A stretch of DNA of 32,000 nt from an uncultured Actinomycetota bacterium. GTDB lineage: Bacteria > Actinomycetota > Actinomycetes > Propionibacteriales > Nocardioidaceae. This document shows positions 1 to 12,925 of the stretch, piece after piece. Made by a program: the position numbers and the translations under genes. The first letter of the stretch is position 1. Each line of letters begins with the position of its first letter. The stretch is taken from the NCBI GenBank assembly GCA_963759525.1, contig CAVWZO010000016.1, positions 100,036 to 132,035 on the forward strand, written 5' to 3'. A model generated the notes under the pieces. The model had not been told where the DNA came from and did not search any database. It was given only the letters and a program-made list of their open reading frames with translations.

Positions 1-135
1 CTCCCGTGACAGCGACGGATCCCCCAGCTGGAGGAACGCGACCGTGCCGTCGTACTCCCTCGCGAGTGCCGTCAGCCGGTCGCGCTCCTGGACCTCGCGC
101 ACCGACATGCCCACGAGAACAAGGTGGTCGCTCAT
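1..135 (-). CDS. Partial CDS (first 45 codons; continues past the left window edge), hypothetical protein
   Basis: Minus-strand ATG at 135-133, preceded by the Shine-Dalgarno GGGAGGAA (reverse complement of 139-146). It reads MSDHLVLVGMSVREVQERDRLTALAREYDGTVAFLQLGDPSLSRE with no stop down to position 1. It is absent from the ORF track because the window truncates it. No family recognised. Confidence 0.4.
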   Translation of the reverse strand, partial: MSDHLVLVGMSVREVQERDRLTALAREYDGTVAFLQLGDPSLSRE

Positions 136-205
136 CGGTTCCTCCCGGGGCGCGGTGCTGGCCACGGGCACGTTACCGGTCACTTCGTGCTCCAGCTGCG
201 CAGGT

Positions 206-225
206 TTCCCCGGCCGGCCGGGGAA
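206..225 (-). terminator. GC-rich hairpin, possible intrinsic terminator of the minus-strand operon ending at 351
   Basis: 20-nt perfect palindrome TTCCCCGGCCGGCCGGGGAA (8-bp stem, 4-nt loop), about 125 nt downstream of the stop of the 351..2381 gene. No U-tract follows, so the call is weak. Confidence 0.35.
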
Positions 226-230
226 GCCTG

Positions 231-289
231 CTCTTTGTCACGGGAGGGCTGCCCTGGGGGCCGGGCCGCAACCCTGGTGTGACAAAGAG
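231..289. repeat. Perfect 11-bp inverted repeat with a 37-nt spacer (stem-loop or operator)
   Basis: CTCTTTGTCAC (231-241) is the exact reverse complement of GTGACAAAGAG (279-289). The comparatively AT-rich arms flank a GC-rich spacer. It lies between the stop of the 351..2381 gene and the start (135) of the next minus-strand gene. Confidence 0.6.
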
Positions 290-350
290 GGCGACGACCG
301 TGTCCGGCACATTTGGCCTTGAGGCCCGCGCCTCGCAGCTTGATCAGCCC

Positions 351-2381
351 TCACTTGATCCCCTCGACGATGAATCCAACCGCTCGGAGGAATCTGAAGA
401 ACTTCCGGTCATTCGTTACGACGGGAACGCCCTCACGGGCCACGCTCGCCGCAACTCTTGAATCTTTGAGATGCAGTGATCGGCCCAGGCTATGGGCGAG
501 CGCCCGGAGCTCTGTGGCGGATGTTTCTGTCCCGGCGGCCGCTAACCGCCCCCCATTCTCCGTGAGGAACTCGCGAAGCGAACTGGTTGTCCCTTTCTTC
601 AAGAACTCCTTCGCGACCGTGATCGGGACGATGGGAGCACGGCCAGCCAAGATGTCTTTGGACTTACCCTGCTGAATGGCGGCTACGAGCGCGTTCGTGT
701 CGAGCGCCACTATTCCCTTCGCTGCGGACCCTGCTCCCTTGCGTGCCAGGGCATCAGCCTCAATCTCCGCCGCGCTCACAGATGTCGTAGCCCCCTTTCC
801 ATCCTCAGCTGAGGAGCGCAGGCGCGGGATGGGCTCCAGACCCCAGATCGGGTCGACATGCGCCGGCTCCGGGTGCACCGGCTCCACATGAACCGGCCCG
901 CTGTAGTCGGGGTGGTTGGGGTCGTTGATGTCGAGGTCCCAGGTCGCGTCCAGGTACACCGGTTCCGGGTGTACTGGTTCGACGTGGACGCATTCGATGT
1001 AGTCGGGATGACTCGGGTGCGTCGGGTCCAGATCCCACAGCTCCACGTGCACCGGCTCCTCATGGCGCAGCTCGTCATGGACCGGATCCACGTAGTCAGG
1101 ATGACTCGGGTGCGTCGGGTCCAGATCCCACAGCTCCACGTGCACCGGCTCCTCATGGCGCAGCTCGTCATGGACCGGATCCACGTAGTCAGGATGACTC
1201 GGGTGCGTCGGGTCCAGATCCCACAGCTCCACGTGCACCGGCTCCTCATGGCGCAGCTCGTCATGGACCGGATCCACATAGTCAGGATGACTCGGGTGCG
1301 TCGGGTCCAGATCCCACAGCTCCACGTGCACCGGCTCCTCATGGCGCAGCTCGTCATGGACCGGATCCACATAGTCAGGATGACTCGGGTGCGTCGGGTC
1401 CAGATCCCACAGCTCCACGTGCACCGGCTCCTCATGGCGCAGCTCGTCATGGACCGGATCCACATAGTCAGGATGACTCGGGTGCGTCGGGTCCAGATCC
1501 CACAGCTCCACGTGCACCGGCTCCTCATGGCGCAGCTCGTCATGGACCGGATCCACATAGTCAGGATGACTCGGGTGCGTCGGGTCCAGATCCCACAGCT
1601 CCACGTGCACCGGCTCCTCATGGCGCAGCTCGTCATGGACCGGATCCACATAGTCAGGATGACTCGGGTGCGTCGGGTCCAGATCCCACAGCTCCACGTG
1701 CACCGGCTCCTCATGGCGCAGCTCGTCATGGACCGGATCCACATAGTCAGGATGACTCGGGTGCGTCGGGTCCAGATCCCACAGCTCCACGTGCACCGGC
1801 TCCTCATGGCGCAGCTCGTCATGGACCGGATCCACATAGTCAGGATGACTCGGGTGCGTCGGGTCCAGATCCCACAGCTCCACGTGCACCGGCTCCTCAT
1901 GGCGCAGCTCGTCATGGACCGGATCCACATAGTCAGGATGACTCGGGTGCGTCGGGTCCAGATCCCACAGCTCCACGTGCACCGGCTCCTCATGGCGCAG
2001 CTCGTCATGGACCGGATCCACATAGTCAGGATGACTCGGGTCGAACACATCGACCCCGTAGGACGGGTCCAAGTGCACCGGCTCGCTCATGAACCGGATC
2101 CACAAAGTCAGGATGACTCGGGTCGAACACATCCGACCCCGTAGGACGGGTCCACAGTGCACCGGCTCCTCATGGCGCAGCTCGTCATGGACCGGATCCA
2201 CAAAGTCAGGATGACTCGGGTCGAACACATCGACCCCGTAGGACGGGTCCATATGCACCGGCTCGCCATGAACCGGATCCACAAAGTCAGGATGACTCGG
2301 GTCGAACACATCCACCCCGTAGGACGGGTCCACATGCGGCTCGAAGTCCATCGGGTGGGGTTCGGAGTTGTACTCGCTCAT
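351..2381 (-). CDS. Repeat-rich acidic His/Pro protein with a C-terminal PIN-like (VapC-type) nuclease domain
   Basis: 676-aa ORF. The N-terminal ~540 aa consist of degenerate plus eleven near-identical 31-aa repeats (HPDYVDPVHDELRHEEPVHVELWDLDPTHPS). The C-terminal ~122 aa carry the PIN acidic-residue pattern: IVALDTNALV (Asp), ITVAKEFL (Glu), HLKDSRV (Asp), VVTNDRKFFRF (Asp). The start is uncertain: ATG 2381 (MSEYNSEPH), or in-frame ATG 2090 (MSEPVHLDPSYG) just after an out-of-frame-looking island. Confidence 0.75.
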   Translation of the reverse strand: MSEYNSEPHPMDFEPHVDPSYGVDVFDPSHPDFVDPVHGEPVHMDPSYGVDVFDPSHPDFVDPVHDELRHEEPVHCGPVLRGRMCSTRVILTLWIRFMSEPVHLDPSYGVDVFDPSHPDYVDPVHDELRHEEPVHVELWDLDPTHPSHPDYVDPVHDELRHEEPVHVELWDLDPTHPSHPDYVDPVHDELRHEEPVHVELWDLDPTHPSHPDYVDPVHDELRHEEPVHVELWDLDPTHPSHPDYVDPVHDELRHEEPVHVELWDLDPTHPSHPDYVDPVHDELRHEEPVHVELWDLDPTHPSHPDYVDPVHDELRHEEPVHVELWDLDPTHPSHPDYVDPVHDELRHEEPVHVELWDLDPTHPSHPDYVDPVHDELRHEEPVHVELWDLDPTHPSHPDYVDPVHDELRHEEPVHVELWDLDPTHPSHPDYVDPVHDELRHEEPVHVELWDLDPTHPSHPDYIECVHVEPVHPEPVYLDATWDLDINDPNHPDYSGPVHVEPVHPEPAHVDPIWGLEPIPRLRSSAEDGKGATTSVSAAEIEADALARKGAGSAAKGIVALDTNALVAAIQQGKSKDILAGRAPIVPITVAKEFLKKGTTSSLREFLTENGGRLAAAGTETSATELRALAHSLGRSLHLKDSRVAASVAREGVPVVTNDRKFFRFLRAVGFIVEGIK
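354..719 (-). other. PIN-like domain (C-terminal 122 aa of the 351..2381 protein)
   Basis: KGIVALDTNALVAAIQQ...ITVAKEFL...LHLKDSRVAASV...VPVVTNDRKFFRFLRAVG. The hhhhDTNhh start and TxD..F end, with intervening Glu and Asp, match the four-acidic-residue PIN signature known from VapC-family RNases. Confidence 0.65.
1007..2029. repeat. Tandem array: 11 copies of a 93-bp unit (in-frame, 31 codons) inside the 351..2381 CDS
   Basis: The unit GATGACTCGGGTGCGTCGGGTCCAGATCCCACAGCTCCACGTGCACCGGCTCCTCATGGCGCAGCTCGTCATGGACCGGATCCACATAGTCAG recurs at 1007, 1100, 1193 ... 1937, with an exact 93-nt period. By eye only one position varies: CGTAG in the first two units versus CATAG in the other nine (a synonymous Tyr codon). 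Degenerate relatives flank the array at about 860-1006 and 2030-2350. Confidence 0.95.
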
Positions 2382-2415
2382 CGGTCCAGGCGCCCTTACA
2401 TCTCAGATGAGTAGC

Positions 2416-3081
2416 TCAGCTGCGAATGTTCCGGATGATGCCCATGCGCATCTGATGGATGATGTTCTGCATCTGGGTGGCGGCCTGCACGTCTTCGACC
2501 TGCAGCTGAATCGCCTGCTGGGTCTTCGCAAGTTCTTTGCTCTCGAGCGCCGCTTGCATGTGACGTTCCGCCTCACGTCGCTTTATCTTGAGAATCTCCA
2601 GCTCCATCTCGCCTTTGGTGAGCTTCCCCCGCTGCTGAGGGGGAGGGGCTGCCGGCTGACCGGCACTACCAGTGCGGGGACGGTTCGGCTGACCCTGGGG
2701 GTGCGCGGTCGAGAGTGTTTGGTTGGAAGGGCCAGCAGGTCGCGGAGCCTGAGGCGCGGGAGCGTTTCCGTGCGGAGCGGCTGGGGGCTGAGGCTCCGGG
2801 GTCACAGAGGTGCCCAACGCCTGACGAATGAGCCCGGCGACGAACTGTGATTTGCCGCCAGCAGTTGGCTCTTCGACCGCACCGATGATCTCCTTCGCAG
2901 CGGCTCTGAGCAGCCGAGGTCCAAGCCCATCCGGACGTCTTGTCGCGGCCGCCAGGACCAGTTCGGCGGTGGGGATACCGCCGTGTGCCTTCGCGCTGTG
3001 CGCCTGGACCTGTCGGACGAGCTCGTCGGGGTGACGCGCCTTCATGTGGGAACGGCAGATGGGGCAAGTGACCTCAAGCAT
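2416..3081 (-). CDS. Hypothetical protein: small N-terminal CxxC domain (DUF1059-like, tentative), Pro/Gln-rich linker, C-terminal coiled-coil
   Basis: 221-aa ORF. ATG 3081 is preceded by AAAGGAA. N-terminus: MLEVTCPICRSHMKARHPDELVRQVQAHSAKAHG. Middle region is low-complexity (PEPQPPAAPHGNAPAPQAPRPAG...). The C-terminus is heptad-like (KGEMELEILKIKRREAERHMQAALESKELAKTQQAIQLQVEDVQAATQMQNII). The stop lies 34 nt upstream of the repeat/PIN gene. Confidence 0.7.
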   Translation of the reverse strand: MLEVTCPICRSHMKARHPDELVRQVQAHSAKAHGGIPTAELVLAAATRRPDGLGPRLLRAAAKEIIGAVEEPTAGGKSQFVAGLIRQALGTSVTPEPQPPAAPHGNAPAPQAPRPAGPSNQTLSTAHPQGQPNRPRTGSAGQPAAPPPQQRGKLTKGEMELEILKIKRREAERHMQAALESKELAKTQQAIQLQVEDVQAATQMQNIIHQMRMGIIRNIRS

Positions 3082-3113
3082 GGGAGTTCCTTTCGGGAGG
3101 TTGTGCGGGGTTT

Positions 3114-3566
3114 TCAGCGGTAGGGCTGGATGGTCGGAAGTCCGTCAGGGCCGCCGTCGTCCACCTGACAGTGGACGCCGTCGACGAGCCTGGTAGCGAC
3201 CACCTGCATGCGATCGCCATCTCGGTCGAGGAGGCGAACTGGTGTCCTGATCGGCATGCGCGAGACGTCGAAGGATCCGCCACAGGTGCGGCCGTGTCGG
3301 TCTGTCACGGCGTTAAGCTCGTTTGTGTACAGATAGAACCGGACAGGGCCGCAGTTGGCAGTGTCGGCTCCGCGCAACGTGACCGAGAGGGAATTTTGTG
3401 CGGGCGAGTCCTCCGATCCGCTTCCACTCGGTGGGGTGGCGTAGGAAGGCGCCGTCACAGTGGGGTTCGAACCAGCGCCGGCGCCCCCGCGGCCAGAGTC
3501 CAAGGCGCTGACGACCATCTCCGCAAGGGCCTGGCGAACTGCGGCCATCACGCCAGGGCGGCTCAT
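3114..3566 (-). CDS. Hypothetical protein (150 aa if started at ATG 3566); possibly the C-terminal part of a frameshifted longer gene
   Basis: This is the high-GC3 portion of ORF 3114..3719. Protein-like sequence begins at MSRPGVMAAVRQALAEMVVSALDSG..., followed by a Ser/Gly/Pro linker and a beta-rich-looking C-terminal region (SLSVTLRGADTANCGPVRFYLYTNELNAVTDRHGRTCGGSFDV...). The ATG overlaps a TGA in another frame (ATGA at 3563-3566). No family recognised. Confidence 0.6.
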   Translation of the reverse strand: MSRPGVMAAVRQALAEMVVSALDSGRGGAGAGSNPTVTAPSYATPPSGSGSEDSPAQNSLSVTLRGADTANCGPVRFYLYTNELNAVTDRHGRTCGGSFDVSRMPIRTPVRLLDRDGDRMQVVATRLVDGVHCQVDDGGPDGLPTIQPYR

Positions 3567-4050
3567 GACGTCGCACCTCTGGAGGCATGCGTCCCGGGTG
3601 ACGGGCGCCGCGGACGGACGCGGCACTGGACGCGGCACTGGGAGTGCCCCGATCGTGCTCCTGCAAGACGGTGCGCCAGCGGTGGAGACTCGCCACCGCG
3701 TTGACCAGCATGCGCGCATCCTCGACGTGGCTGCCGGTCGGCGGACCCGTAAAGGAGATCCGGTGTCGCTGTGTTCCCACGGTGAGGGTCAGTCCCATGG
3801 TGAGCCAGTTGTAGGAGATCGCGTCGACATCGGCGAGAACGAGATCGAAGATGGTCTTGCCGGCCGCGTCCTCCTTCTCGTACCAACTGCTGAAGGCGGT
3901 CCCGGCGGGGGCTGCTACGAACTTCAGCCGTCCGCCTCGCAGAGCCAACGAACCTGGCCTGCCGCGGGCGAACATCACGCGCTCGTAGTGCCAGGCCTGG
4001 GTCTGCAGGTGTTGCCGATTGTCGGTCTTCTCGGTCTTCATTGCATTCAC
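3313..4050 (-). CDS. Hypothetical protein with a PH/GRAM-like N-terminal domain; the C-terminal ~110 codons look out of frame (3' end doubtful)
   Basis: GTG 4050 lies 6 nt downstream of a strong AAGGAGAA Shine-Dalgarno. Residues 1-130 are protein-like (AWHYERVMFARGRPGSLALRGGRLKFV...TIFDLVLADVDAISYNWLTMGLTLTVGTQRHRISFTG...LHRWRTVLQ). After about position 3660 the frame becomes rich in Arg/Trp/Cys/His and overlaps the better-looking frame of 3114..3719. There is no stop until 3313. Confidence 0.55.
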   Translation of the reverse strand: MNAMKTEKTDNRQHLQTQAWHYERVMFARGRPGSLALRGGRLKFVAAPAGTAFSSWYEKEDAAGKTIFDLVLADVDAISYNWLTMGLTLTVGTQRHRISFTGPPTGSHVEDARMLVNAVASLHRWRTVLQEHDRGTPSAASSAASVRGARHPGRMPPEVRRHEPPWRDGRSSPGPCGDGRQRLGLWPRGRRRWFEPHCDGAFLRHPTEWKRIGGLARTKFPLGHVARSRHCQLRPCPVLSVHKRA

Positions 4051-4538: not shown

Positions 4539-6914
4539 GTGTGTCCCATGCCCTTGGGCGCAGAGCAAGCGCATCATGAACGCATGGCCGTCGAGCTCCG
4601 TGCAGGACACCAGAACCACCGCTCCTGGCGAGCTGGCTCTGTGTCTCCCCCGCGGGTGGCCGGCGCCGTCCTCTTCCTGGTCGCCTTGCCCTTGGCCTGG
4701 CTCTCGTGGTTGATGCTGGCCCAGACCAGTGCCCCCTGGGACGGCACCCGGATCGGCGCGGCGCTCTACCAGGAGAGTGAATGGCGAGAGGGCGTGGAAC
4801 TGCACAACCCGCTCGACCCCACGAACAGTCCGCTGAGGCACGGCGACATAGTCGTCGCGATCGACGGAACCCCCCTCGGGGACTGGATCGTCGCTCACCG
4901 CGCCGAAGAGTTCGAGGTCGGCGACCGCCTCAGCTACGGCGTGATCCGCGAGGGGCACCCGGAGACGTTCGAGGTGACGCTGCGGCCGTACGACTGGGGC
5001 AGGGCAATCGGGTACAGCGCCCCGACGCTCGCTGTTGTGTTGTGTCTCTTCGTTGTCGCGCTCGGAGTGGTGGTGGCGCGCCCCGGGGTCCCTGCGGCCC
5101 GGGTGCTGTTTGCGATTGCCTCAGTGGCACCGTTCGGGTTCCCCGACTGGCCGTTCAGAGGACAGGTGCTGGGCCTGGCGCTGTCCCCTTGGCCCATGTG
5201 GCCGCAACTCGTCGCTGGCGCCGTTTGGGCGCTCGTGTGGGGGGCGATGATCCCGCACTTCGCGCTCGTCTTCCCAAGCCCCCCACCGATCCTTGCCCGG
5301 CGCAGGTGGCTGCTGCCTGCTCTCTACGCGTCGCCGTTCCTGGTCTACGCCGCCTACCTCGCGGCAACCTTGCCGCTGGCCGCCAACCGCCTCGAGGCGC
5401 TGGAGCGGGTGTCCGCGACCTGGCTGGTGACCCAGAGGTACGCCGCGGTGGCAGTGATAGCGCTGATGGCCTGGTCCTACGTGCGCACCCGTGGATCCCA
5501 GGACCGTCACCGGGTGGCACTGGTTGCTGCGAGTCTGTTGACGGCCTTCACGATCAACCTCCTCGGTGTGCAGCTTCCTAACCTCATCGTCGGCACGTCT
5601 GTGATTCCGCGGCCGGTCTGGGCGTGGGTCTTCATCATCGTTCCGGTCGCCATCGCGGTGGCAATCTTGAGACATCAGCTCTTCGACATCACTGTCGTGC
5701 TGCGACGATCCCTGCTCGCGGCAGGGTTGGCCGCCGTGGTTGGCGGCGTCTACGTCATCTGCCTCCTGCTTCTCGGACACCCGACGCGTGCGGAGCTGCC
5801 GTACTTCCTGATCGGTACGGCGGCCGCGCTGATCCTGCCCCGTCTGTATCGATGGCTGCGCACGGCGCTGACCCACAGCATCTACGGTGCCCGCGACGAT
5901 CCGTATGAGCTCGTCGAACAGATCGTGAGCCTCGATCCCGGCAGCGATCCGGAGCTGTTGCTCCAGCGTCTCGCGCGAACCCTCAGCGAAGCCCTGCATC
6001 TGCGGTTCGCCGCGATCTCGCTGAACGAACCCGGAGGCACGCTGCGGGCGTCATACGGCACCAGCGAGGGAGTCCCCCACCGTGTCCGGCTGGTCCGTGG
6101 GACCGAGGACGTGGGATACCTCGAGCTCGATGTGGGCCATGGTCGAGAACCGTTCGGTCAGGCCGACCAGAGACTGCTCGCCGCGATCGCCACCCACGCA
6201 GCAGCCGCTGTGTCCGCGACCACGCTCAACCGCGACCTGCAGGAGTCCCGCGCTCGCCTCGTCACCCGTCGAGAAGAAGAACGTAGACGTATCCGTCGTG
6301 ACCTGCACGACGGGGTTGGACCGAAGCTCGCACTACTCGCTATGAACCTCGAGGTCATCAAGGACTTGATCAAGCGGGATCCGGACTCTGCAGAGCGGCT
6401 TCTCGATGACGCAGGCTCCCGGACACACGAAGCGATCAGCGAAATCCGCCAGGTGGTCAGCAACCTGCGACCGGCCGTTCTGGACGAGCTAGGTCTCGAG
6501 GGGGCGTTGAGCATCCTCACCGAGCAGACCTCCGACGCTCACCGGCACGACAGGGCCGGGCCGTTCGACGTCACCCTCGAGGCCACGCCGGCCGGCTGCC
6601 TCGGACAGCTGTCGGCAGCCGTGGAAGTGGCTGCATACCGAATCATCAGCGAGGCAGTGAACAACGCGAGCAGACATGCTCAAGCCACCTGCTGCAATGT
6701 TCAGATCCAGGTCGACGGCCGGCTGACAATCTCAGTCCGCGACGACGGGAAGGGCATTCCTCCTGGTGCCGTTCCTGGAACAGGTCTGGCATCCATCGCG
6801 GAGCGCGCCCACGAGCTGGGCGGAACAGCCGCCGTACGACAGGCGCCCAGTGGCGGAACCCTCGTCACGGCCACCATCCCCCTCCAGCCGAAGGAGTCAG
6901 AGCATGAGCAGTGA
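4539..6914 (+). CDS. Polytopic sensor histidine kinase (HisKA_3/NarX-type) with an extracytoplasmic PDZ-like domain
   Basis: PDZ-like segment: LRHGDIVVAIDGTPLGDW...VGDRLSYGVIREGHPETFEVTLRP. It is followed by multiple hydrophobic helices and a GAF-like linker. Kinase motifs: H-box RRRIRRDLHDGVGPKLA, N-box EAVNNASRHA, G1 VRDDGKGI, G2 GTGLASIAERAHELGG. The start is uncertain (GTG 4539, ATG 4548, ATG 4584 or a later GTG). Confidence 0.9.
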   Translation: MCPMPLGAEQAHHERMAVELRAGHQNHRSWRAGSVSPPRVAGAVLFLVALPLAWLSWLMLAQTSAPWDGTRIGAALYQESEWREGVELHNPLDPTNSPLRHGDIVVAIDGTPLGDWIVAHRAEEFEVGDRLSYGVIREGHPETFEVTLRPYDWGRAIGYSAPTLAVVLCLFVVALGVVVARPGVPAARVLFAIASVAPFGFPDWPFRGQVLGLALSPWPMWPQLVAGAVWALVWGAMIPHFALVFPSPPPILARRRWLLPALYASPFLVYAAYLAATLPLAANRLEALERVSATWLVTQRYAAVAVIALMAWSYVRTRGSQDRHRVALVAASLLTAFTINLLGVQLPNLIVGTSVIPRPVWAWVFIIVPVAIAVAILRHQLFDITVVLRRSLLAAGLAAVVGGVYVICLLLLGHPTRAELPYFLIGTAAALILPRLYRWLRTALTHSIYGARDDPYELVEQIVSLDPGSDPELLLQRLARTLSEALHLRFAAISLNEPGGTLRASYGTSEGVPHRVRLVRGTEDVGYLELDVGHGREPFGQADQRLLAAIATHAAAAVSATTLNRDLQESRARLVTRREEERRRIRRDLHDGVGPKLALLAMNLEVIKDLIKRDPDSAERLLDDAGSRTHEAISEIRQVVSNLRPAVLDELGLEGALSILTEQTSDAHRHDRAGPFDVTLEATPAGCLGQLSAAVEVAAYRIISEAVNNASRHAQATCCNVQIQVDGRLTISVRDDGKGIPPGAVPGTGLASIAERAHELGGTAAVRQAPSGGTLVTATIPLQPKESEHEQ

Positions 6915-7575
6915 TCCCATCCGGATCCTCGTCGCCGACGACGACACCGATTTCCGGCAGGGGCTGCTGGCCCTTCTGCGTACGGTCGAGCGGGTCAGCG
7001 TGGTCAGTGAAGCCGCCACCGGCGCCGAGGCAGTTGAGCGCGTGGCTGAGTTCCAGCCCGACCTCGTGCTGATGGACCTGAACATGCCGCTGGTCAATGG
7101 CATCGAGGCAACGAGGGCCATCGCCGGGAGCAGCCCACACGTCGCAGTGCTCATGCTGACCATGTTCGAGGACGACGAGTCAGTCCTGGCTGCGATGCGT
7201 GCTGGTGCGAGAGGCTACATCTTGAAGGGTGCAGCGCGTGCCGAGATCGTGCGGGCCATCGAGGCGGCCACTGACGGCAGCGTCATCTTCGGACCTGGCG
7301 TCGCCAAACGGGTGTTGAGTCGATTCGCCCCCCGCGACCCCGAGGCGGAGACGCCGTTCCCCGAGCTCACCACCCGCGAGCGCGACATCTTGACCCGTGT
7401 TGCCCGCGGCCTCAACAACGACGCTATCGCCCGGGAGCTGACGCTCAGCTCCAAGACTGTCCGGAACCATGTGCACAGCATCTACAGCAAGCTCCAGATT
7501 CAGAGCCGAGGAGAGGCCATCGCCCAAGCTCGGGACGCTGGTCTCGGCGAGCGGGGTTCGAAGCGCAACCAGTAG
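6904..7575 (+). CDS. Two-component response regulator, NarL/LuxR family
   Basis: ATG 6904 is preceded by AAGGAG (6891-6896) and overlaps the kinase stop (6912-6914). Receiver domain: IRILVADDD...DLVLMDLNMPLVNG...LMLTMFEDD...GARGYILK. LuxR-type HTH: LTTRERDILTRVARGLNNDAIARELTLSSKTVRNHVHSIYSKLQI. The track ORF start at 6766 is an Arg/Pro/Ser-rich extension lying inside the kinase gene. Confidence 0.95.
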   Translation: MSSDPIRILVADDDTDFRQGLLALLRTVERVSVVSEAATGAEAVERVAEFQPDLVLMDLNMPLVNGIEATRAIAGSSPHVAVLMLTMFEDDESVLAAMRAGARGYILKGAARAEIVRAIEAATDGSVIFGPGVAKRVLSRFAPRDPEAETPFPELTTRERDILTRVARGLNNDAIARELTLSSKTVRNHVHSIYSKLQIQSRGEAIAQARDAGLGERGSKRNQ

Positions 7576-7616
7576 TCAGCCCAGAAGTCAGCCCAGAAGT
7601 CAGCCCAGAAGTCAGC
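7575..7616. repeat. 12-bp tandem repeat GTCAGCCCAGAA, 3 full copies plus a partial, in the convergent gene junction
   Basis: Copies at 7575-7586, 7587-7598 and 7599-7610, with a partial copy at 7611-7616. The array starts on the last base of the response-regulator TAG (7573-7575) and runs into the TGA (7612-7614, minus strand) of the patatin-like gene. Confidence 0.9.
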
Positions 7617-10600
7617 ACCGTCGTGACCCAGAGGGCAGGCCGAGGGCCGTCAGCACGTCGTGCAGGGTGCCGTACTTCTCGTGGTCCTTGGTGTCCTTCT
7701 GGCCGTCCCCATCGAGAAGCCCGCTGGGGTTCTTCTCCTGCACACACAGGTCGTCGTCCATCTCGGCGACACTCGCCTTGGACAACACCCAGCCCAGTGG
7801 GGCTGCCATCGACGGCTGCCGGGTCTGGTGAACGACGTAGGAGTGAATGCGCGTGTGCTTGTTGTGCTTGAGTGCCTCGCACGCCGCCCCCGACCCCGAG
7901 CACAGGGAGTCGGCTACCTCGGCCTCGGCAAGCTCGAGGGCGGCCAGTGCCTTTGCCTTGTGGTTCGGAGCGTTGTAGTAGCCGATCGGCGGGATGAGCA
8001 CTTCGGGGATGTCGAGTGTGCGTGGCCAGTTCCAGGAGTTGCCGCCCTTGGTCTTCTCGGCCGTCTTCTGTGCCTTGACTTCCGCGGGGGTGACGCCTTC
8101 CGCTTCTGCGTCAGGAACCGTGTAGTCCTCGCCTGCGCCGTTCTCCAGGAACACGACCATGGGAACGACGAGGTCGCCAGTCCTCTGGGACAGGACCGCG
8201 TCGTTGTGGTCACGAACCAGGTCGGTCCACTGGTCAGCGAGGTCGACGATGGTGCCGAGTCCGGAGTTGTCGGTGTAGCCGCCGTCGATCGCCTGCAGGG
8301 GCTTCCGGTCGCCGCACGGCCCGACCACCCCGGACGGGGTGACGTAGGGGAACCTGCTTGCGAGTAGGCCTGCAGTGAGCGTGCGCACGTTTCCCAGGCA
8401 GTGTTTGTTGCCGGCGTCCTCTGGTTGCTCGCCTTGAGGTACCCCATACGTGCTGAACAGGTCGAACCCGTTCTTGCCTGCTTCATCTCCGCCACACTCG
8501 GGCCACCCGTCGAGGGACTTCGCGGGCCCGGCGAGCTTCATCTGGCTCAGTAGGGCTCGGCACCCGTCGAGTGGGATCGAGCTCACCAGGACCAACTGCC
8601 CGGTCACCGACCCGTCGGAGTCGGTGGCGTCCTTGACGTCGTCGGTCACGAACGCGGTCTGGAGCTCGCTGAGCCCCGGGATGTCCTCCCAAGTCGTCTC
8701 CATCAAGCCCGCCCGGTCCAGGCCTTGGCGGTCCGGGTTGCGGTGCTCGGCCCTGGAGCCGAACCGGATCCCGGCGGAGCTGGTCAGCAGGTCGCCCGCG
8801 ACCAGTGAGATGGCGGCGGCGCCGAGCGCATCGGGGCCGGCCATTCGTTCTGTCGCGTGCCTCGGGGCGTCGCTGAACCTGCTGACGGCCAGCCCGACGG
8901 CGCCGCCACTCGCGCCAGTGGAGAAGAATGCTGCGTGGCGCCCACACGTGGGAGAGTCCTCGCGGTCGCCCTCGCCGGGGTAGGCGATCCGGTCGAGGGC
9001 CGATGCAGTCCAGTACGCAGCGCGAATACCGCCGCCTTCGGCTGCGTACATCAGCATCGGTCGAACCCGGAACCGGTTGTCCTTCTCGTACGGGACCGTG
9101 CAGGCGCCGGGCGCATTGACCCAAGCGGTGAACGCGTCGGCCATCGTTGGGCGTTCGGGGAGCGTGGCGCTGTCGTTCTCGACCGCGTGGACGTCGGTGC
9201 TGCCTCCGGCAAACGCGGCCAACCCGACGGCGACGATGAACATGGCTGTGACCGGCGTGGTGCGAACGCGTCTGTCCCGGTCCTTTGCCCGGTTCCGCCA
9301 CGGCCAGCGGACCTGGAACAGCTCAGGTGGCTGATGCTCCTGGGCGTAGGCCACCAGCAGCCCCAGCATGATGATCAGTGTTCCGACCGTCAGGGTCGCT
9401 GCGGCCAGCGCGCCGATCCTCTCAGCGGTGCCTCTCGGGAAGACGCACAACAAGATGAACACGCCGCTGGAAAGGGTGAGGCTGCCGAGGAGGAACTCGA
9501 CACGCTCCGTGATCCTCGGCGAGTCCCCTTTCTCGCGCGGGGGGTCGAAGCCCGGGACCACCAGCGCTCGTAGCCCGACGGGGTCGGTCTGTTCGTCCAG
9601 GCTGCTCCTGACCGCGCTCGCGGCCCGGTCCGCCAACCTCCCGGGCAGGGACTTGCGCTGACTCGGGTCGCGTGCGCCGGTGCCCGCGACGCTCCCGTCG
9701 GCGATCCGGGAGAGGGCGGCGGAGGGAGGGCCATCACCCAGCGAGGACAACAGCGCCCTGGTGAACGGCCAGGCAGCGATCGCACCTGCGAAACCGAGCA
9801 GGAGCAGGACCCACTGGCCCACTGCGCGCAGGTTGCCGAGGTCGAGCAGCCCCCACCAGCTCATCACGACAGGGCCGGCGAACGCGCGAACCGCAGCCAG
9901 TCCGATCAGGGACGCCGCCGCGGCGACGATGACGTCGCCGACCGCCATCACGTCGCTGCCGAAGGTGTCCTCGCGCGCATGCTGTCGCTCATCAGGCTCC
10001 CGGTCTCGGCGTTGTTGCGGTGGCAGCAGCCGGGGGGCCTTGCCCGCCTGGCGCGCCTTGCGCTCCATGCGCAGAAGGGCCAATGAGGCGATGCCTACCA
10101 CCACCGGGACGCTGCAGAACGCGACCAGGCGCGGCCAGTACACGTGCCCACCCGACAAGGAGCCGATCCCTGCAGCTACGAGCAGCAGCGCCGGGCCGCT
10201 GAACCAGAACGCGGCGTGGAGCCTGCGCGCGGAGGTCTCGTCCGGGTTGTCCGGGTTGGCCTGCGGGGAGTCATAGTTCGGCCACCAGTCACCGCGATGT
10301 TGGCGGCGAACCGCCCAGTCGGCGCGGATGCGGCACAGGAAAAGTATCGGGAGCCACACGGCGAAGACGAAGATCAAGGCGGCCCAGCCCAGGTCGAACA
10401 GGTCAGACCATCCGTCGAGCCATCTGCGTTGCACGTCCGGCAGCTGGTCGAACAGGTCGCTCACGACGCTGCCCAGCGGCAGCACGGACAGCGCGGCTAT
10501 CGGGAGGAACGCCAGGAGACTGAACCGTTGTTCCCACGTCGCGACGACGAGCTCCCGGGTCCGAGCCCAGAACGGTTCCCAGGCCCGGCGGGCCGCCAGC

Positions 10601-11280
10601 GCGCCGGCCACGATCACCACTGCGAGGAGCCCCCACTTGACCAAGGTCACGACCACCGAGCCATCGATCAGCGAATCCGGCACACATCCCCGGGGGTCCG
10701 GGCACCGCTGGATGGCCATGAGTGTGTGCAGAACATTCTCGAGCAGGTCCGCAGCAGCAAGGGCTACCACGAGCCATGACGCCCCGGAGATCGTTTGGCC
10801 GCGCACCGTCACCGGCCACTTCCCGCGGTACTCCTCGCCCTGAGGTCCATCTTGGAGCTTCTTCTGTACGGCGCGGACCACGGCCAGCAGCGCGATCGTG
10901 TAGATGACGATGAAGCACAGGTCGAGGAGTTGGTAGAACAACACCATCCGCGACCAGACGACTTGCGGCTCCAGGCCATCGATCAGGTCACCACTCAACG
11001 CGTCGTTCCAATGGGTCGACGCTTTGCGCGCCCATGGACTGCCGAGCATCCCGGGCGAGGTGTTGTCGCCGACGCCCGTGACGAACCCGGCACACAGGGT
11101 GCTGAGCTCGTGCATGGCCAGAGCCAGGGCCGCGAGAGCAGCCACCACGGCGCCCGGCGTGTGGAACTTCGCCAGTCGCGGTGGCTGGATGGGAGGTGGT
11201 GTGGTCGTCGCTGGCGACGATTGCTCAGGTAGGCCCGTGTGGAGGTCCTGCGCGCCCGACGGCTGGGTCTGCGAGGTCAT
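7612..11280 (-). CDS. Large polytopic membrane protein with a patatin-like phospholipase domain
   Basis: 1222 aa from ATG 11280 (MTSQTQPSGAQD...). The N-terminal ~750 aa contain many hydrophobic helices. The C-terminal region carries the patatin triad of motifs: oxyanion AEGGGIRAAYW (about 9015-9045), nucleophile elbow GASGG (8901-8915) and catalytic AIDGGYTDNSG (about 8262-8292). The track start at 11424 adds an Arg/Cys/Pro-rich leader that I consider non-coding. Confidence 0.85.
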   Translation of the reverse strand: MTSQTQPSGAQDLHTGLPEQSSPATTTPPPIQPPRLAKFHTPGAVVAALAALALAMHELSTLCAGFVTGVGDNTSPGMLGSPWARKASTHWNDALSGDLIDGLEPQVVWSRMVLFYQLLDLCFIVIYTIALLAVVRAVQKKLQDGPQGEEYRGKWPVTVRGQTISGASWLVVALAAADLLENVLHTLMAIQRCPDPRGCVPDSLIDGSVVVTLVKWGLLAVVIVAGALAARRAWEPFWARTRELVVATWEQRFSLLAFLPIAALSVLPLGSVVSDLFDQLPDVQRRWLDGWSDLFDLGWAALIFVFAVWLPILFLCRIRADWAVRRQHRGDWWPNYDSPQANPDNPDETSARRLHAAFWFSGPALLLVAAGIGSLSGGHVYWPRLVAFCSVPVVVGIASLALLRMERKARQAGKAPRLLPPQQRRDREPDERQHAREDTFGSDVMAVGDVIVAAAASLIGLAAVRAFAGPVVMSWWGLLDLGNLRAVGQWVLLLLGFAGAIAAWPFTRALLSSLGDGPPSAALSRIADGSVAGTGARDPSQRKSLPGRLADRAASAVRSSLDEQTDPVGLRALVVPGFDPPREKGDSPRITERVEFLLGSLTLSSGVFILLCVFPRGTAERIGALAAATLTVGTLIIMLGLLVAYAQEHQPPELFQVRWPWRNRAKDRDRRVRTTPVTAMFIVAVGLAAFAGGSTDVHAVENDSATLPERPTMADAFTAWVNAPGACTVPYEKDNRFRVRPMLMYAAEGGGIRAAYWTASALDRIAYPGEGDREDSPTCGRHAAFFSTGASGGAVGLAVSRFSDAPRHATERMAGPDALGAAAISLVAGDLLTSSAGIRFGSRAEHRNPDRQGLDRAGLMETTWEDIPGLSELQTAFVTDDVKDATDSDGSVTGQLVLVSSIPLDGCRALLSQMKLAGPAKSLDGWPECGGDEAGKNGFDLFSTYGVPQGEQPEDAGNKHCLGNVRTLTAGLLASRFPYVTPSGVVGPCGDRKPLQAIDGGYTDNSGLGTIVDLADQWTDLVRDHNDAVLSQRTGDLVVPMVVFLENGAGEDYTVPDAEAEGVTPAEVKAQKTAEKTKGGNSWNWPRTLDIPEVLIPPIGYYNAPNHKAKALAALELAEAEVADSLCSGSGAACEALKHNKHTRIHSYVVHQTRQPSMAAPLGWVLSKASVAEMDDDLCVQEKNPSGLLDGDGQKDTKDHEKYGTLHDVLTALGLPSGSRRC

Positions 11281-11398
11281 GGAGACTGCCCCGTCCTCGA
11301 GATGGTCTTGCGCCGAGTAACAGCAGCGTCGCAGACAAACGCCCACTGACGGTGGATGCGGCGGGGTTGTTGCTCGCCCGGTCCAGACCTGTGCGCAC

Positions 11399-11420
11399 GG
11401 CTCCGGCATCCGCCGGAGCC
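11399..11420 (-). terminator. Hairpin downstream of the DUF4242-like gene (candidate terminator)
   Basis: GGCTCCGGC-ATCC-GCCGGAGCC: perfect 9-bp stem and 4-nt loop, 35 nt downstream of the stop at 11455. No U-tract. Confidence 0.4.
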
Positions 11421-11454
11421 GCACGCGCTCCCTCTGGCCCGAGCACCCCGTCGA

Positions 11455-11709
11455 TCAGCTGCCCTCGACGACCTCGTAGATCTGGTCGGCCACCAGCCCG
11501 TGGGCCTCACGGTGCACGGTGATCGCGGCTTCGGCGCTGTCGGCTTCGACGAGGCAGAAGACCTTGCCGTTGTTCTCGTCGACCCAGTACTGCTTGTACG
11601 AGACGCCGTACTGGCCCTGGGTCTCCAGATCGGCCTTGTGTGCGGCGGCCACGTCGGTGGCGGTTGCGCCGTCGGGAAGCTGCTCGTGTACGTCCATGAA
11701 GAGTGGCAT
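11455..11709 (-). CDS. DUF4242-like small protein (SCO4226-type putative metal-binding fold)
   Basis: 84 aa: MPLFMDVHEQLPDGATATDVAAAHKADLETQGQYGVSYKQYWVDENNGKVFCLVEADSAEAAITVHREAHGLVADQIYEVVEG. The MP.FMDVH start, AH..DL..Q..YGV, YW.D...G.VFCL.EA and VH.EAHG motifs match my memory of the DUF4242 family. Confidence 0.8.
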   Translation of the reverse strand: MPLFMDVHEQLPDGATATDVAAAHKADLETQGQYGVSYKQYWVDENNGKVFCLVEADSAEAAITVHREAHGLVADQIYEVVEGS

Positions 11710-11753
11710 CGGATGCTCCTTGACTGGGTGGTTGGTCTGACACACTCAGTGTC

Positions 11754-12773
11754 ATGCTGGGGTCTCTGGCCGAGAATGATCGCCCAGCCGCCGTACCTGA
11801 CCGGGAACCCACGGCGGCGCTCGCCGACGCGCTGTCCCGCCTTCGACTGCAGGGCGCGATCTTCCTGCGCGGCGACTACACCGAGGGATGGGCGTACGAG
11901 TCACTGCCGTCAGCCGACGCGGCGGCGGTCCTCGCCCCGAACGCCGGCCGGGTGCTGCTCTTCCACGTGGTCGCATCGGGGCGCTGCTGGGTCGACGTAC
12001 CCAGCGGTGAACGGGTGTGGGCGGACGCAGGCGACGTGATCGTGCTGCCCTACAACGACCAGCACCGGATGGGCGGTACGACGGACGCGACCGTGGTCCC
12101 GATCGCGACACTCATCAGCCCCCCGCCCTGGGAACGGATGCCGGTGATCCAGCACGGCGAGGGCGGCGACCCGACGAGCGTCATCTGTGGCTACCTGACC
12201 TGTGAAGACCCGTTGTTCGACCCGAGGCTGCGGATGTTCCCTCCGGTCTTCGTGGTCAGCCCGCCGCCCGGCCCGGCCCGCGAGTGGGTGAAGGCCAGCA
12301 TCGAGTACGCCGCACAACAGACAACCAAGGTGGGGGTCGACCGCTTCGAGGCCCCGTCACAGGTACCCGAGCTGCTCCTCGTCGAGATCCTCAAGCTGCA
12401 CCTGGCGAACGCTCCCGCCACCGACCATGGCTGGACGAAAGCGATCCGGGACCCCGTGCTCGCGCCCGCGCTTGCTGCGATCCACGGCTCTCCCGAACAC
12501 AAGTGGAGCGTGGCGACCCTCGCCGCTGAGGCCAGCGTCTCGATCTCGTTGCTGGACGAGCGGTTCCGCGAGGTGCTCGGTCTGGCGCCGATCCGCTACC
12601 TGACCGGCTGGCGGATGCACATCGCCGAGGACCTTCTCCGCTCCACCGACCTGAGCGTCGCCGGCATTGCCCGACGGGTCGGCTACGACTCGGAGGAAGC
12701 ATTCAGCCGTGCCTTCAAACGCATGCAGGGCCAGGCGCCGAGCGTATGGCGAGAGAGGTCGGCGAGACGCTGA
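11754..12773 (+). CDS. AraC-family transcriptional regulator with a cupin-type N-terminal sensor domain
   Basis: 339 aa. The N-terminal cupin-like region includes LLFHVVASGRCWVDVPSGERVWADAGDVIVLPYNDQHRMGG. The C-terminal dual HTH reads WSVATLAAEASVSISLLDERFREVLGLAPIRYLTGWRMHIAEDLLRSTDLSVAGIARRVGYDSEEAFSRAFKRMQGQAPSVWR. It is divergent from the DUF4242-like gene across a 44-bp gap. Confidence 0.92.
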   Translation: MLGSLAENDRPAAVPDREPTAALADALSRLRLQGAIFLRGDYTEGWAYESLPSADAAAVLAPNAGRVLLFHVVASGRCWVDVPSGERVWADAGDVIVLPYNDQHRMGGTTDATVVPIATLISPPPWERMPVIQHGEGGDPTSVICGYLTCEDPLFDPRLRMFPPVFVVSPPPGPAREWVKASIEYAAQQTTKVGVDRFEAPSQVPELLLVEILKLHLANAPATDHGWTKAIRDPVLAPALAAIHGSPEHKWSVATLAAEASVSISLLDERFREVLGLAPIRYLTGWRMHIAEDLLRSTDLSVAGIARRVGYDSEEAFSRAFKRMQGQAPSVWRERSARR

Positions 12774-12820
12774 CGTCTGGCAGGCGGGAGGCGGCAGGCG
12801 GCAGGCGGGCCCCCGAGCCA

Positions 12821-12881
12821 CACATTTGTTGGATCGGGACGTCGAGACCGGTGAGCTGAACGTCCGGATCCAACATTTGTG
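12821..12881. promoter_or_regulatory. Imperfect 22-bp inverted repeat (19/22 match) with a 17-nt spacer; candidate operator upstream of the cupin gene
   Basis: CACATTTGTTGGATCGGGACGT (12821-12842) compared with the reverse complement of ACGTCCGGATCCAACATTTGTG (12860-12881). The AT-rich ACATTTGT cores are conspicuous in GC-rich DNA. The right arm ends 45 nt before the cupin ATG (12926), and the left arm starts 48 nt after the AraC stop. Confidence 0.5.
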
Positions 12882-12925
12882 GGGTCGGGTGGCCGCCGGG
12901 CCCAGCAGGCGACAGAGTTGGTGGC

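Follow-up and report, generated by a model that had tools for sequence, protein, structure and literature searches.

The gene at positions 351 to 2,381 on the reverse strand of the DNA analysed here, a stretch of 32,000 nucleotides (nt) from contig CAVWZO010000016.1 of an uncultured bacterium of the Nocardioidaceae, encodes a protein in which a PIN module is joined to lineage-specific, hyper-acidic repeats rich in histidine and proline. Together with its upstream neighbor the gene forms a two-gene unit, and no immunity gene is found in the whole stretch, which we refer to as the window. As judged by homology, the PIN module belongs to a family of C-terminal domains of polymorphic toxins, so that the architecture can be described as the tip of such a toxin on an unprecedented carrier, again with no immunity gene in the window. 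Our preferred interpretation, which we hold tentatively and at slightly less than an even chance, is that of a conflict effector nuclease whose disordered, polyanionic N-terminus would act both as a carrier and as a mask in cis. The unit comprises the following parts, all on the reverse strand:

351-2381, reverse strand: toxin gene, an open reading frame (ORF) of 676 amino acids (aa) with an ATG start, coding for acidic His/Pro-rich repeats followed by a C-terminal PIN toxin module
354-776, reverse strand: toxin module, residues 536-676, with its core at residues 556-676 (354-716); match to the family profile with E = 2.8e-55 over residues 536-675
795-1010, reverse strand: two older, degenerate repeat units (residues 458-529) and then the linker to the toxin module; the motif HPDY..PVH..EPVH..W.L(D/E)P is kept
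1011-2033, reverse strand: perfect tandem array of 11 identical 31-aa (93-bp) units of HPDYVDPVHDELRHEEPVHVELWDLDPTHPS, defined by composition and Tandem Repeats Finder
2034-2381, reverse strand: N-terminal region with four older units of a 27-aa type, motif DPSYGVDVFDPSHPDFVDPVH
2085-2156, reverse strand: garbled unit with three +1 single-base insertions that sum to +3, as seen in the DNA alignment; residues 76-99 read CGPVLRGRMCSTRVILTLWIRFMS
2416-3081, reverse strand: upstream partner gene, 221 aa, isoelectric point (pI) 10.3, located 34 nt upstream of the toxin ORF
1-350, reverse strand: position at which an immunity gene is expected and which holds none; an intergenic region with a hairpin at 200-231, then a gene that starts at 135

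A preliminary description of this DNA had assigned the C-terminus of the protein to a PIN-like nuclease domain at 354-719. These coordinates were correct, and structure prediction with AlphaFold2 (AF2), Foldseek and Pfam agree on a PIN fold for the C-terminal ~120 aa. The AF2 model of the domain had a predicted local distance difference test (pLDDT) score of 80.7 with an alignment of three sequences and of 85-90 in a second run, and in a Foldseek comparison with the PDB the top 29 matches were all PIN or VapC-type structures, with template modelling (TM) scores of 0.70-0.75 for the best of them (e.g. 3zvk, 4chg, 3tnd and 3dbo). The Pfam family PIN (PF01850) was matched with 23.8 bits by the excised domain, at a cut-off of 23.6, and with 19 bits by the whole protein; TIGR00028 yielded 14.4 bits at a cut-off of 73.6. 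The seven residues conserved in the family are all retained in the window copy, D561, N563, E592, R634, D640, T656 and D658, and among 139 family domains the corresponding columns are conserved to 88% (D6), 82% (N8), 91% (E37), 88% (R79), 99% (D85), 96% (T101) and 100% (D103). The acidic tetrad of PIN domains, whose absence would have spoken against the assignment, is present as D561, E592, D640 and D658, the four positions being conserved to 88-100% in the same 139 domains. Judged from the strands and helices of the AF2 model, these residues occupy the canonical places of the fold: D561 follows strand 1, E592 lies within helix 32-41, D640 is found where helix 83-95 begins and D658 follows strand 99-101. 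As far as the model goes, the gene thus encodes an intact PIN-fold nuclease module. Its 121 C-terminal residues carry a net charge of +7, with a pI of 10.4.

The family to which this module belongs was defined by a profile search of 1.84 billion protein representatives, which yielded 300 representative clusters at E ≤ 1e-3, and of these 54 reached E ≤ 1e-30; contexts were read for the 151 members listed. In 149 of these the domain is found at the extreme C-terminus, in proteins of 75 to 3026 aa. Long members carry RHS repeats, SpvB, TcdB and FG-GAP domains according to Pfam, and the 77 members of intermediate size include 11 with RHS repeats, five with a YD-shell, three with PT-HINT and three with PT-TG. 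Some members begin with a signal peptide or a lipoprotein signal followed by a proline-rich linker, and many are short ORFs consisting of a leader and the PIN domain. The consensus of the region preceding the PIN domain matches the core end of TcC and Rhs proteins of solved structure (YenC2, TccC3, Tse5 and others), with E values down to 6e-18. The module in the window is homologous, with 43-63% identity, to the C-terminal toxin domains of Rhs/YD and TcC proteins, polymorphic toxins in the sense of PMC3482391, as in a 2113-aa Rhs protein (L003), a 2063-aa protein that by eye is of the Tc/Rhs type (L005) and a protein for which Pfam finds SpvB, TcdB and RHS (P0006), and it begins at the same domain boundary (...AAKG-IVALDTN). 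What characterizes a polymorphic toxin, a C-terminal toxin domain common to proteins with unrelated N-termini, is found in this family.

The module also shares its fold, and the same four acidic residues in the same fold positions, with VapC, the toxin of the type II VapBC systems (PF01850), to which its best structural matches belong; at the sequence level the family profile matches VapC-5 of M. tuberculosis (3dbo) weakly, with E = 6e-4. In contrast to the stand-alone VapC proteins of ~130-150 aa, however, the PIN domain here occupies residues 556-676 of a 676-aa protein, a recognizable antitoxin of the VapB type (AbrB, RHH, Phd/YefM or HTH) is not found upstream in the window, and the relatives of the PIN domain make use of a distinct immunity protein that is encoded downstream. 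The picture of a VapC-type toxin that has gained a tail, from which the preliminary description set out, is therefore not borne out: the relatives are the tips of Rhs/YD, TcB-TcC and other polymorphic toxins, followed by an immunity gene. Another suggestion made there, a polymorphic effector, fits the family of the PIN domain, although neither a trafficking domain nor a signal peptide was found in the protein. The homologue search also established that the module occurs without the repeats, as none of the 151 members listed has a comparable acidic, His-rich leader.

In a survey of polymorphic toxins by Zhang, Iyer, Aravind et al. (2012), PIN domains were stated to belong to toxin-antitoxin systems and to be unused by polymorphic toxins (PMC3482391), and a classification of PIN domains from 2017 makes no mention of Rhs, polymorphic toxins or immunity (PMC5499597). 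In the open-access literature, with subscription journals outside the scope, we found no description of PIN domains in Rhs, TcC, type VI secretion system (T6SS) or polymorphic toxins. As the 2012 survey had excluded PIN domains from this class, the PIN family and its immunity partner appear to be undescribed within that literature, and the objection that the protein might fall into a known, annotated family with another function did not materialize. An unannotated toxin-immunity pair is thereby added, contrary to the statement of the 2012 survey, and a PIN-fold family of ~300 clusters that appears as a regular cargo of Rhs, TcC and pre-toxin proteins and has an immunity family of its own links both toxin worlds.

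In the relatives, the immunity gene is a constant companion of the toxin. A word-indexed search identified two relatives, both with a homologous small ORF directly after the toxin gene, and with ten loci from scans of genomes and metagenomes and two from exact look-ups the set comprises 14 loci (L001-L005, L008-L014, L016 and L017). In 14 of 14, a homologous ORF of ~110 aa abuts the stop codon of the toxin gene. The consensus of the encoded proteins starts with MSA[YF]N and contains an inner motif QFK[FY]G..Y.Y.VGD..W, and most have two pairs of cysteines reminiscent of a zinc ribbon; the protein of L005 has no cysteines. The family is unannotated, with weak matches to zinc-ribbon families of Pfam only, and the five proteins that were measured have pI values of 4.5-5.2. 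By position and conservation, the ORF abutting the PIN stop codon bears the hallmarks of the cognate immunity gene of the toxin family. L017 (1-3887) is a textbook example of an orphan cassette: an Rhs-type gene contains a pre-toxin tract, MEQDPNAVPSAPLGVDDGSPQQDG..., ahead of its own toxin and is followed by its immunity gene, after which a second copy of this tract serves as leader to a cassette of PIN domain and immunity gene.

No homologue of the immunity proteins was found in the window, neither by hmmsearch with all filters off in every open frame nor by tblastn, with five immunity proteins and over the entire 32 kb to which all our window searches refer. At the expected position, there is instead an unrelated gene that begins at 135, has a strong Shine-Dalgarno sequence and extends beyond the window. 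The GC-rich hairpin at 200-231, which lies between the stop codon of the toxin gene and this next gene, has a stem of 14 bp and is adjoined by an 11-bp inverted repeat, CTCTTTGTCAC (279-289) and GTGACAAAGAG (231-241); hairpin and inverted repeat (200-289) may represent a terminator that lacks a U-tail, or else a repeat element.

The part of the protein that precedes the toxin module, residues 1-545, has a net charge of -121 and a pI of 4.5 and consists of 13% His, 16% Pro and 26% Asp plus Glu, in marked contrast to the charge of +7 of the PIN domain and to the basic protein encoded upstream. Tandem Repeats Finder describes the array as 11.2 copies of a 93-bp unit with 99% matches at 1000-2041. 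A composition counted by hand in the preliminary description, 5 His, 9 Asp/Glu, 1 Arg and 5 Pro per 31-aa unit, proved exact upon recalculation, and the charges estimated from it, -8 per unit and roughly -90 over the array, are computed as -8 and, for the 11 units, -88. Nine of the 11 units are identical in DNA sequence, and the two others carry a single T>C exchange (TAT>TAC) that is synonymous in the reported frame. The array is a very recent in-frame expansion. The units that flank it have diverged, those at the N-terminal end showing a period of 81/82 bp at 2034-2337 (Tandem Repeats Finder), and as the two on the C-terminal side keep their motif at the protein level, the repeat theme must predate this expansion. 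With its perfect, in-frame 93-bp units the array may vary in length, and the locus is possibly hypervariable. Its copy number is that of the present assembly, and independent short-read contigs do not span the array; of these, one (L006) covers the gene from its start codon through the first unit with 0 mismatches and ends at window position 2283, exactly at the first repeats, and a second ends ~80 bp inside the gene according to the gene table.

In the garbled unit at 2085-2156, the insertions turn 24 acidic residues into basic or hydrophobic ones before the frame is restored; from the sequence they may be either real compensated mutations or errors of polishing. Through the shift, an internal ATGAGCGAG (MSE) arises as well, identical to the nine bases with which the gene starts.

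For two modelled units of the array (residues 396-457) and the following degenerate units and linker, AF2 yielded pLDDT values of ~30-35, with 27-44 per block of 10 residues, which is consistent with a disordered repeat region. The repeats hold 72 histidines, and these are spaced H-x2-H, H-x4-H and H-x7-H in every unit. The earlier verdict that this architecture is not a recognized one was upheld, as a search of 5.8 billion proteins (5.8e9) returned no relative of the repeat region; a comparison with the PDB returned one insignificant match and nothing else. In residues 1-545 neither Pfam nor NCBIfam has a domain that passes its curated cut-off, and in the acidic N-terminus, MSEYNSEPHPMDFE, no hydrophobic segment or signal peptide was found, so that the reported absence of a signal peptide and of a known trafficking domain was confirmed by Pfam, NCBIfam and the N-terminal sequence. 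Matches of the repeats in plasmids of Shewanella and Salmonella obtained with tblastn were rejected as an artefact of repeats and composition, because the match that was inspected (H1) corresponds to the strand opposite an annotated traG-N gene. A derivation of the repeats from the core-end motif of Rhs proteins, prompted by the resemblance of HPDFVDPVHGE to nPvsFVDPsGre, was rejected as well, the profile having no match in the repeats.

Because the stop-free unit is repeated, two further frames are open in this region, an ORF on the plus strand (858-2144) and a second frame on the minus strand (776-2050), both of which were rejected as genes. The frame at 351-2381 is favored over these by its continuity with the PIN module, by its conserved start and by the TAT>TAC variant, which is non-synonymous in both of the other frames; note that G+C content at third codon positions (GC3) does not discriminate sense from antisense across the array. 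Outside the repeats, the frame is open over ~366 unique codons at 64% G+C, for which we estimate a chance probability of ~5e-5. The N-terminal start MSEYNSE recurs in a relative (L007), downstream of a gene homologous to the upstream partner. In exact-sequence look-ups of the 676-aa product, of four alternative starts and of the ORFs in both alternative frames, no record was found in public protein sets.

The upstream partner of 221 aa combines a DUF1059-like N-terminus with Cys and His residues, a Pro/Gln-rich linker and a helical C-terminus. The DUF1059 match remains below the Pfam threshold, with 20.2 bits at a cut-off of 21.1, and no antitoxin family was found in this protein in Pfam or NCBIfam. 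One identical protein and one relative with 77% identity, that of L007, are known, and in the latter case the contig continues after the homologue with a gene starting MSEYNSEHFADQPEFADP and then ends. As evidenced by this start of the downstream gene, both the two-gene unit and the acidic N-terminus are conserved. The G+C content is 0.63-0.65 at window positions 1-3100 and 0.65-0.72 in the rest of the window, and GC3 is 0.70-0.78 in the PIN gene and its partner as opposed to 0.79-0.90 in neighboring genes. The lower GC3 of the unit suggests an acquisition by horizontal transfer, with the left border outside the window. A search for defense systems with PADLOC gave nothing significant, with one match at E = 0.072, and with respect to phages a tblastn search returned nothing, and PHROGs a single weak match to a family of unknown function (E = 3e-4).

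In the interpretation that we prefer, the protein would be a conflict effector, a Mg2+/Mn2+-dependent RNase that kills through RNA cleavage. The polyanionic N-terminus would substitute for a carrier of the Rhs type, and it would at the same time be a pro-region in cis, such that the basic nuclease (pI 10.4) is kept masked or unfolded in the producing cell until export or processing. The basic 221-aa protein might then be a dedicated chaperone or adaptor that binds to the acidic region. As the pro-region would mask the nuclease in cis, an immunity gene acting in trans could be lost. A number of points weigh against this proposal. Neither a secretion signal nor a trafficking domain or a cleavage motif was found in the protein, and a profile of the Rhs core did not match residues 1-545 even when it was run without any filter and matches with E ≤ 1000 were admitted. 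Production, export and processing of the protein are assumed in this reading, and masking in cis is proposed from charge complementarity and the absent immunity gene. The immunity gene could sit elsewhere in the genome, beyond the 32 kb of the window, or the truncated gene that starts at 135 could be an immunity gene of non-homologous type. Furthermore, the garbled unit with its three insertions and the absence of the exact product from public proteins may signal decay or a sequencing problem.

Such decay is at the center of a first alternative, a non-functional relic, in which a toxin cassette would have been stripped of immunity gene and carrier, would be reached by read-through from a minisatellite-like ORF that evolves fast, and would be silent, inactive or vanishing. 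We consider this unlikely. It would account for the garbling of one unit by three indels and for the missing immunity gene in the window, and also for a near-identical array that points to unconstrained expansion, a GC3 lower than in the neighbors, a product absent from public protein sets and a repeat region without relatives. Nevertheless, 676 codons have stayed open, the three insertions adding up to +3, none of the seven family-conserved residues is lost, the older, diverged units retain their motif at the protein level, the sole polymorphism among the units is synonymous in the reported frame alone, and the 77%-identical relative shares both the start codon and the upstream partner.

A toxin-antitoxin-like or abortive-infection module, in which the toxin would act in the producer under stress or phage attack, and in which the role of antitoxin would fall to the 221-aa protein, with a helical C-terminus that would bind and block the PIN domain and a Cys/His N-terminus that would serve regulation, appears improbable. 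PIN toxins are classic toxins of toxin-antitoxin systems (PMC3482391), the gene order with the small gene first and a gap of 34 nt resembles VapBC, the pair is conserved in a relative and the usual downstream immunity gene is absent in the window. The candidate antitoxin, however, has no DNA-binding antitoxin domain, the DUF1059 match being sub-threshold, no match in the PADLOC defense models, and with its pI of 10.3 it is basic, like the PIN domain that it would have to neutralize. Moreover, every relative of the toxin domain is the tip of a secreted toxin with immunity downstream, and the polyanionic tail of 545 aa has no role in this model.

Immunity in trans might also have been replaced altogether by a built-in immunity, in which the disordered, His-rich polyanionic array would mask the PIN domain in cis, either by mimicking a nucleic acid or as an electrostatic pro-region, the mask being released by processing, export or metal binding and its strength set by the number of repeats. 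We regard this as distinctly unlikely; the fused antitoxin envisaged in the preliminary description does gain some weight, because the otherwise constant immunity gene of the family is absent in the window. Barstar, the colicin Im proteins and Ocr/ArdA are acidic inhibitors of nucleases or mimics of nucleic acids, and all are folded, separate proteins with specific interfaces. The likeness, a polyanion set against a basic nuclease, is one of analogy only, and the five measured immunity proteins of the PIN family are acidic as well; in contrast to these inhibitors, the acidic part of the protein in the window is fused, repetitive and predicted to be disordered.

PIN enzymes need metal ions, and a metal-gated nuclease, whose His/Asp/Glu repeats would bind Zn2+, Ni2+ or Cu2+ as a switch or buffer Mg2+/Mn2+, would be compatible with each of the other interpretations. 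The composition and the regular spacing of histidines in the units are in line with such gating, as are the established metal dependence of PIN enzymes and the DUF1059-like Cys/His motif in the upstream partner, but the proposal derives from composition, with no match to a metal-binding family in Pfam, NCBIfam or the PDB, and a high proline content with predicted disorder is compatible with many roles, so that we hold it to be very unlikely. Finally, that the number of repeats, the three insertions or the fusion of repeats and PIN domain are long-read errors of assembly or polishing seems extremely improbable: short reads cannot bridge a perfect array of 93-bp units, their contigs stopping at 2283 and ~80 bp into the gene, and three single-base insertions in one unit do resemble such errors, but independent data (L006) reproduce the 5' end of the gene, with start codon and first unit, at 0 mismatches, a break of short-read contigs at this point is to be expected from a real repeat, and the junction of repeats and PIN domain (795-1010) is unique sequence without a stop codon.

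Compared to its Rhs and TcC relatives, the protein in the window has no Rhs shell, no autoproteolysis motif of the core end and no pre-toxin (PT-HINT, PT-TG) or trafficking domain, and its gene has neither a downstream immunity gene nor 5' homology to the TcB-TcC gene of the window. Orphan toxin-immunity cassettes of the rhs/cdiA type, such as the leader-plus-PIN form in L017, likewise do without a carrier of known type, but such cassettes keep the immunity gene and 5' homology to a nearby main gene, both of which the gene in the window lacks within the 32 kb. In addition, its "leader" is a repeat protein of 545 aa that has a start codon and an upstream partner of its own. The gene is in this sense a natural experiment, the same toxin without an immunity gene or a known carrier, fused to a polyanion of 545 aa that has no relatives, and if the protein is active, its control or delivery must follow a route so far undescribed.

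A machine of the type that carries the PIN domain elsewhere is present in the same window, 11 kb from the PIN gene and with regulators in between:

13409-31323, reverse strand: complete Tc (ABC) toxin locus, assigned by Pfam; TcA is split in two (25126-31323 and 21570-25115), TcB and TcC are fused (13409-21568)

The two parts of TcA have 2065 aa (VRP1, ABC_toxin_N, neuraminidase-like) and 1181 aa (TcA_TcB_BD), and the TcB-TcC fusion of 2719 aa contains SpvB, TcdB midN/midC, FG-GAP and RHS. The possibility that the PIN gene is an orphan cassette of this locus was rejected, as positions 1-2450 have no similarity to the rest of the window in blastn or tblastn. The C-terminal region of TcB-TcC (13409-14350, reverse strand) consists of ~310 aa after the core end ...MVDPDGQW and is rich in Ala and Gly, with hydrophobic runs resembling glycine zippers. 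These ~310 aa have no match in Pfam and are unrelated to the PIN domain; from their sequence they are possibly a membrane-active cargo. TcB-TcC is not followed by any immunity-like ORF; a cupin gene is located on the opposite strand.

The regions 4539-7575 (plus strand) and 11455-13360 hold a HisKA_3 histidine kinase and a LuxR-type response regulator, an SCO4226-like nickel-responsive protein, an AraC/cupin regulator and a cupin. The proximity of a nickel-responsive protein to His-rich repeats is noted as a curiosity. At 3114-4050 (reverse strand), two ORFs (3313-4050 and 3114-3719) overlap by ~400 nt, and the codon-position signal changes frame near 3600-3650, a switch that coincides with a 12-bp tandem repeat, GGACGCGGCACT x2.2, at 3616-3641; the region could be a single frameshifted gene or reflect a sequencing error. 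Its N-terminal part looks by eye like a small PH-like domain, with no Pfam match below E = 0.05. Between the regulators, a protein of 1270 aa (7612-11424, reverse strand) has many predicted membrane segments and no Pfam match, and its C-terminal part contains a GGGIRAAY motif that by eye is reminiscent of patatin-like lipases.

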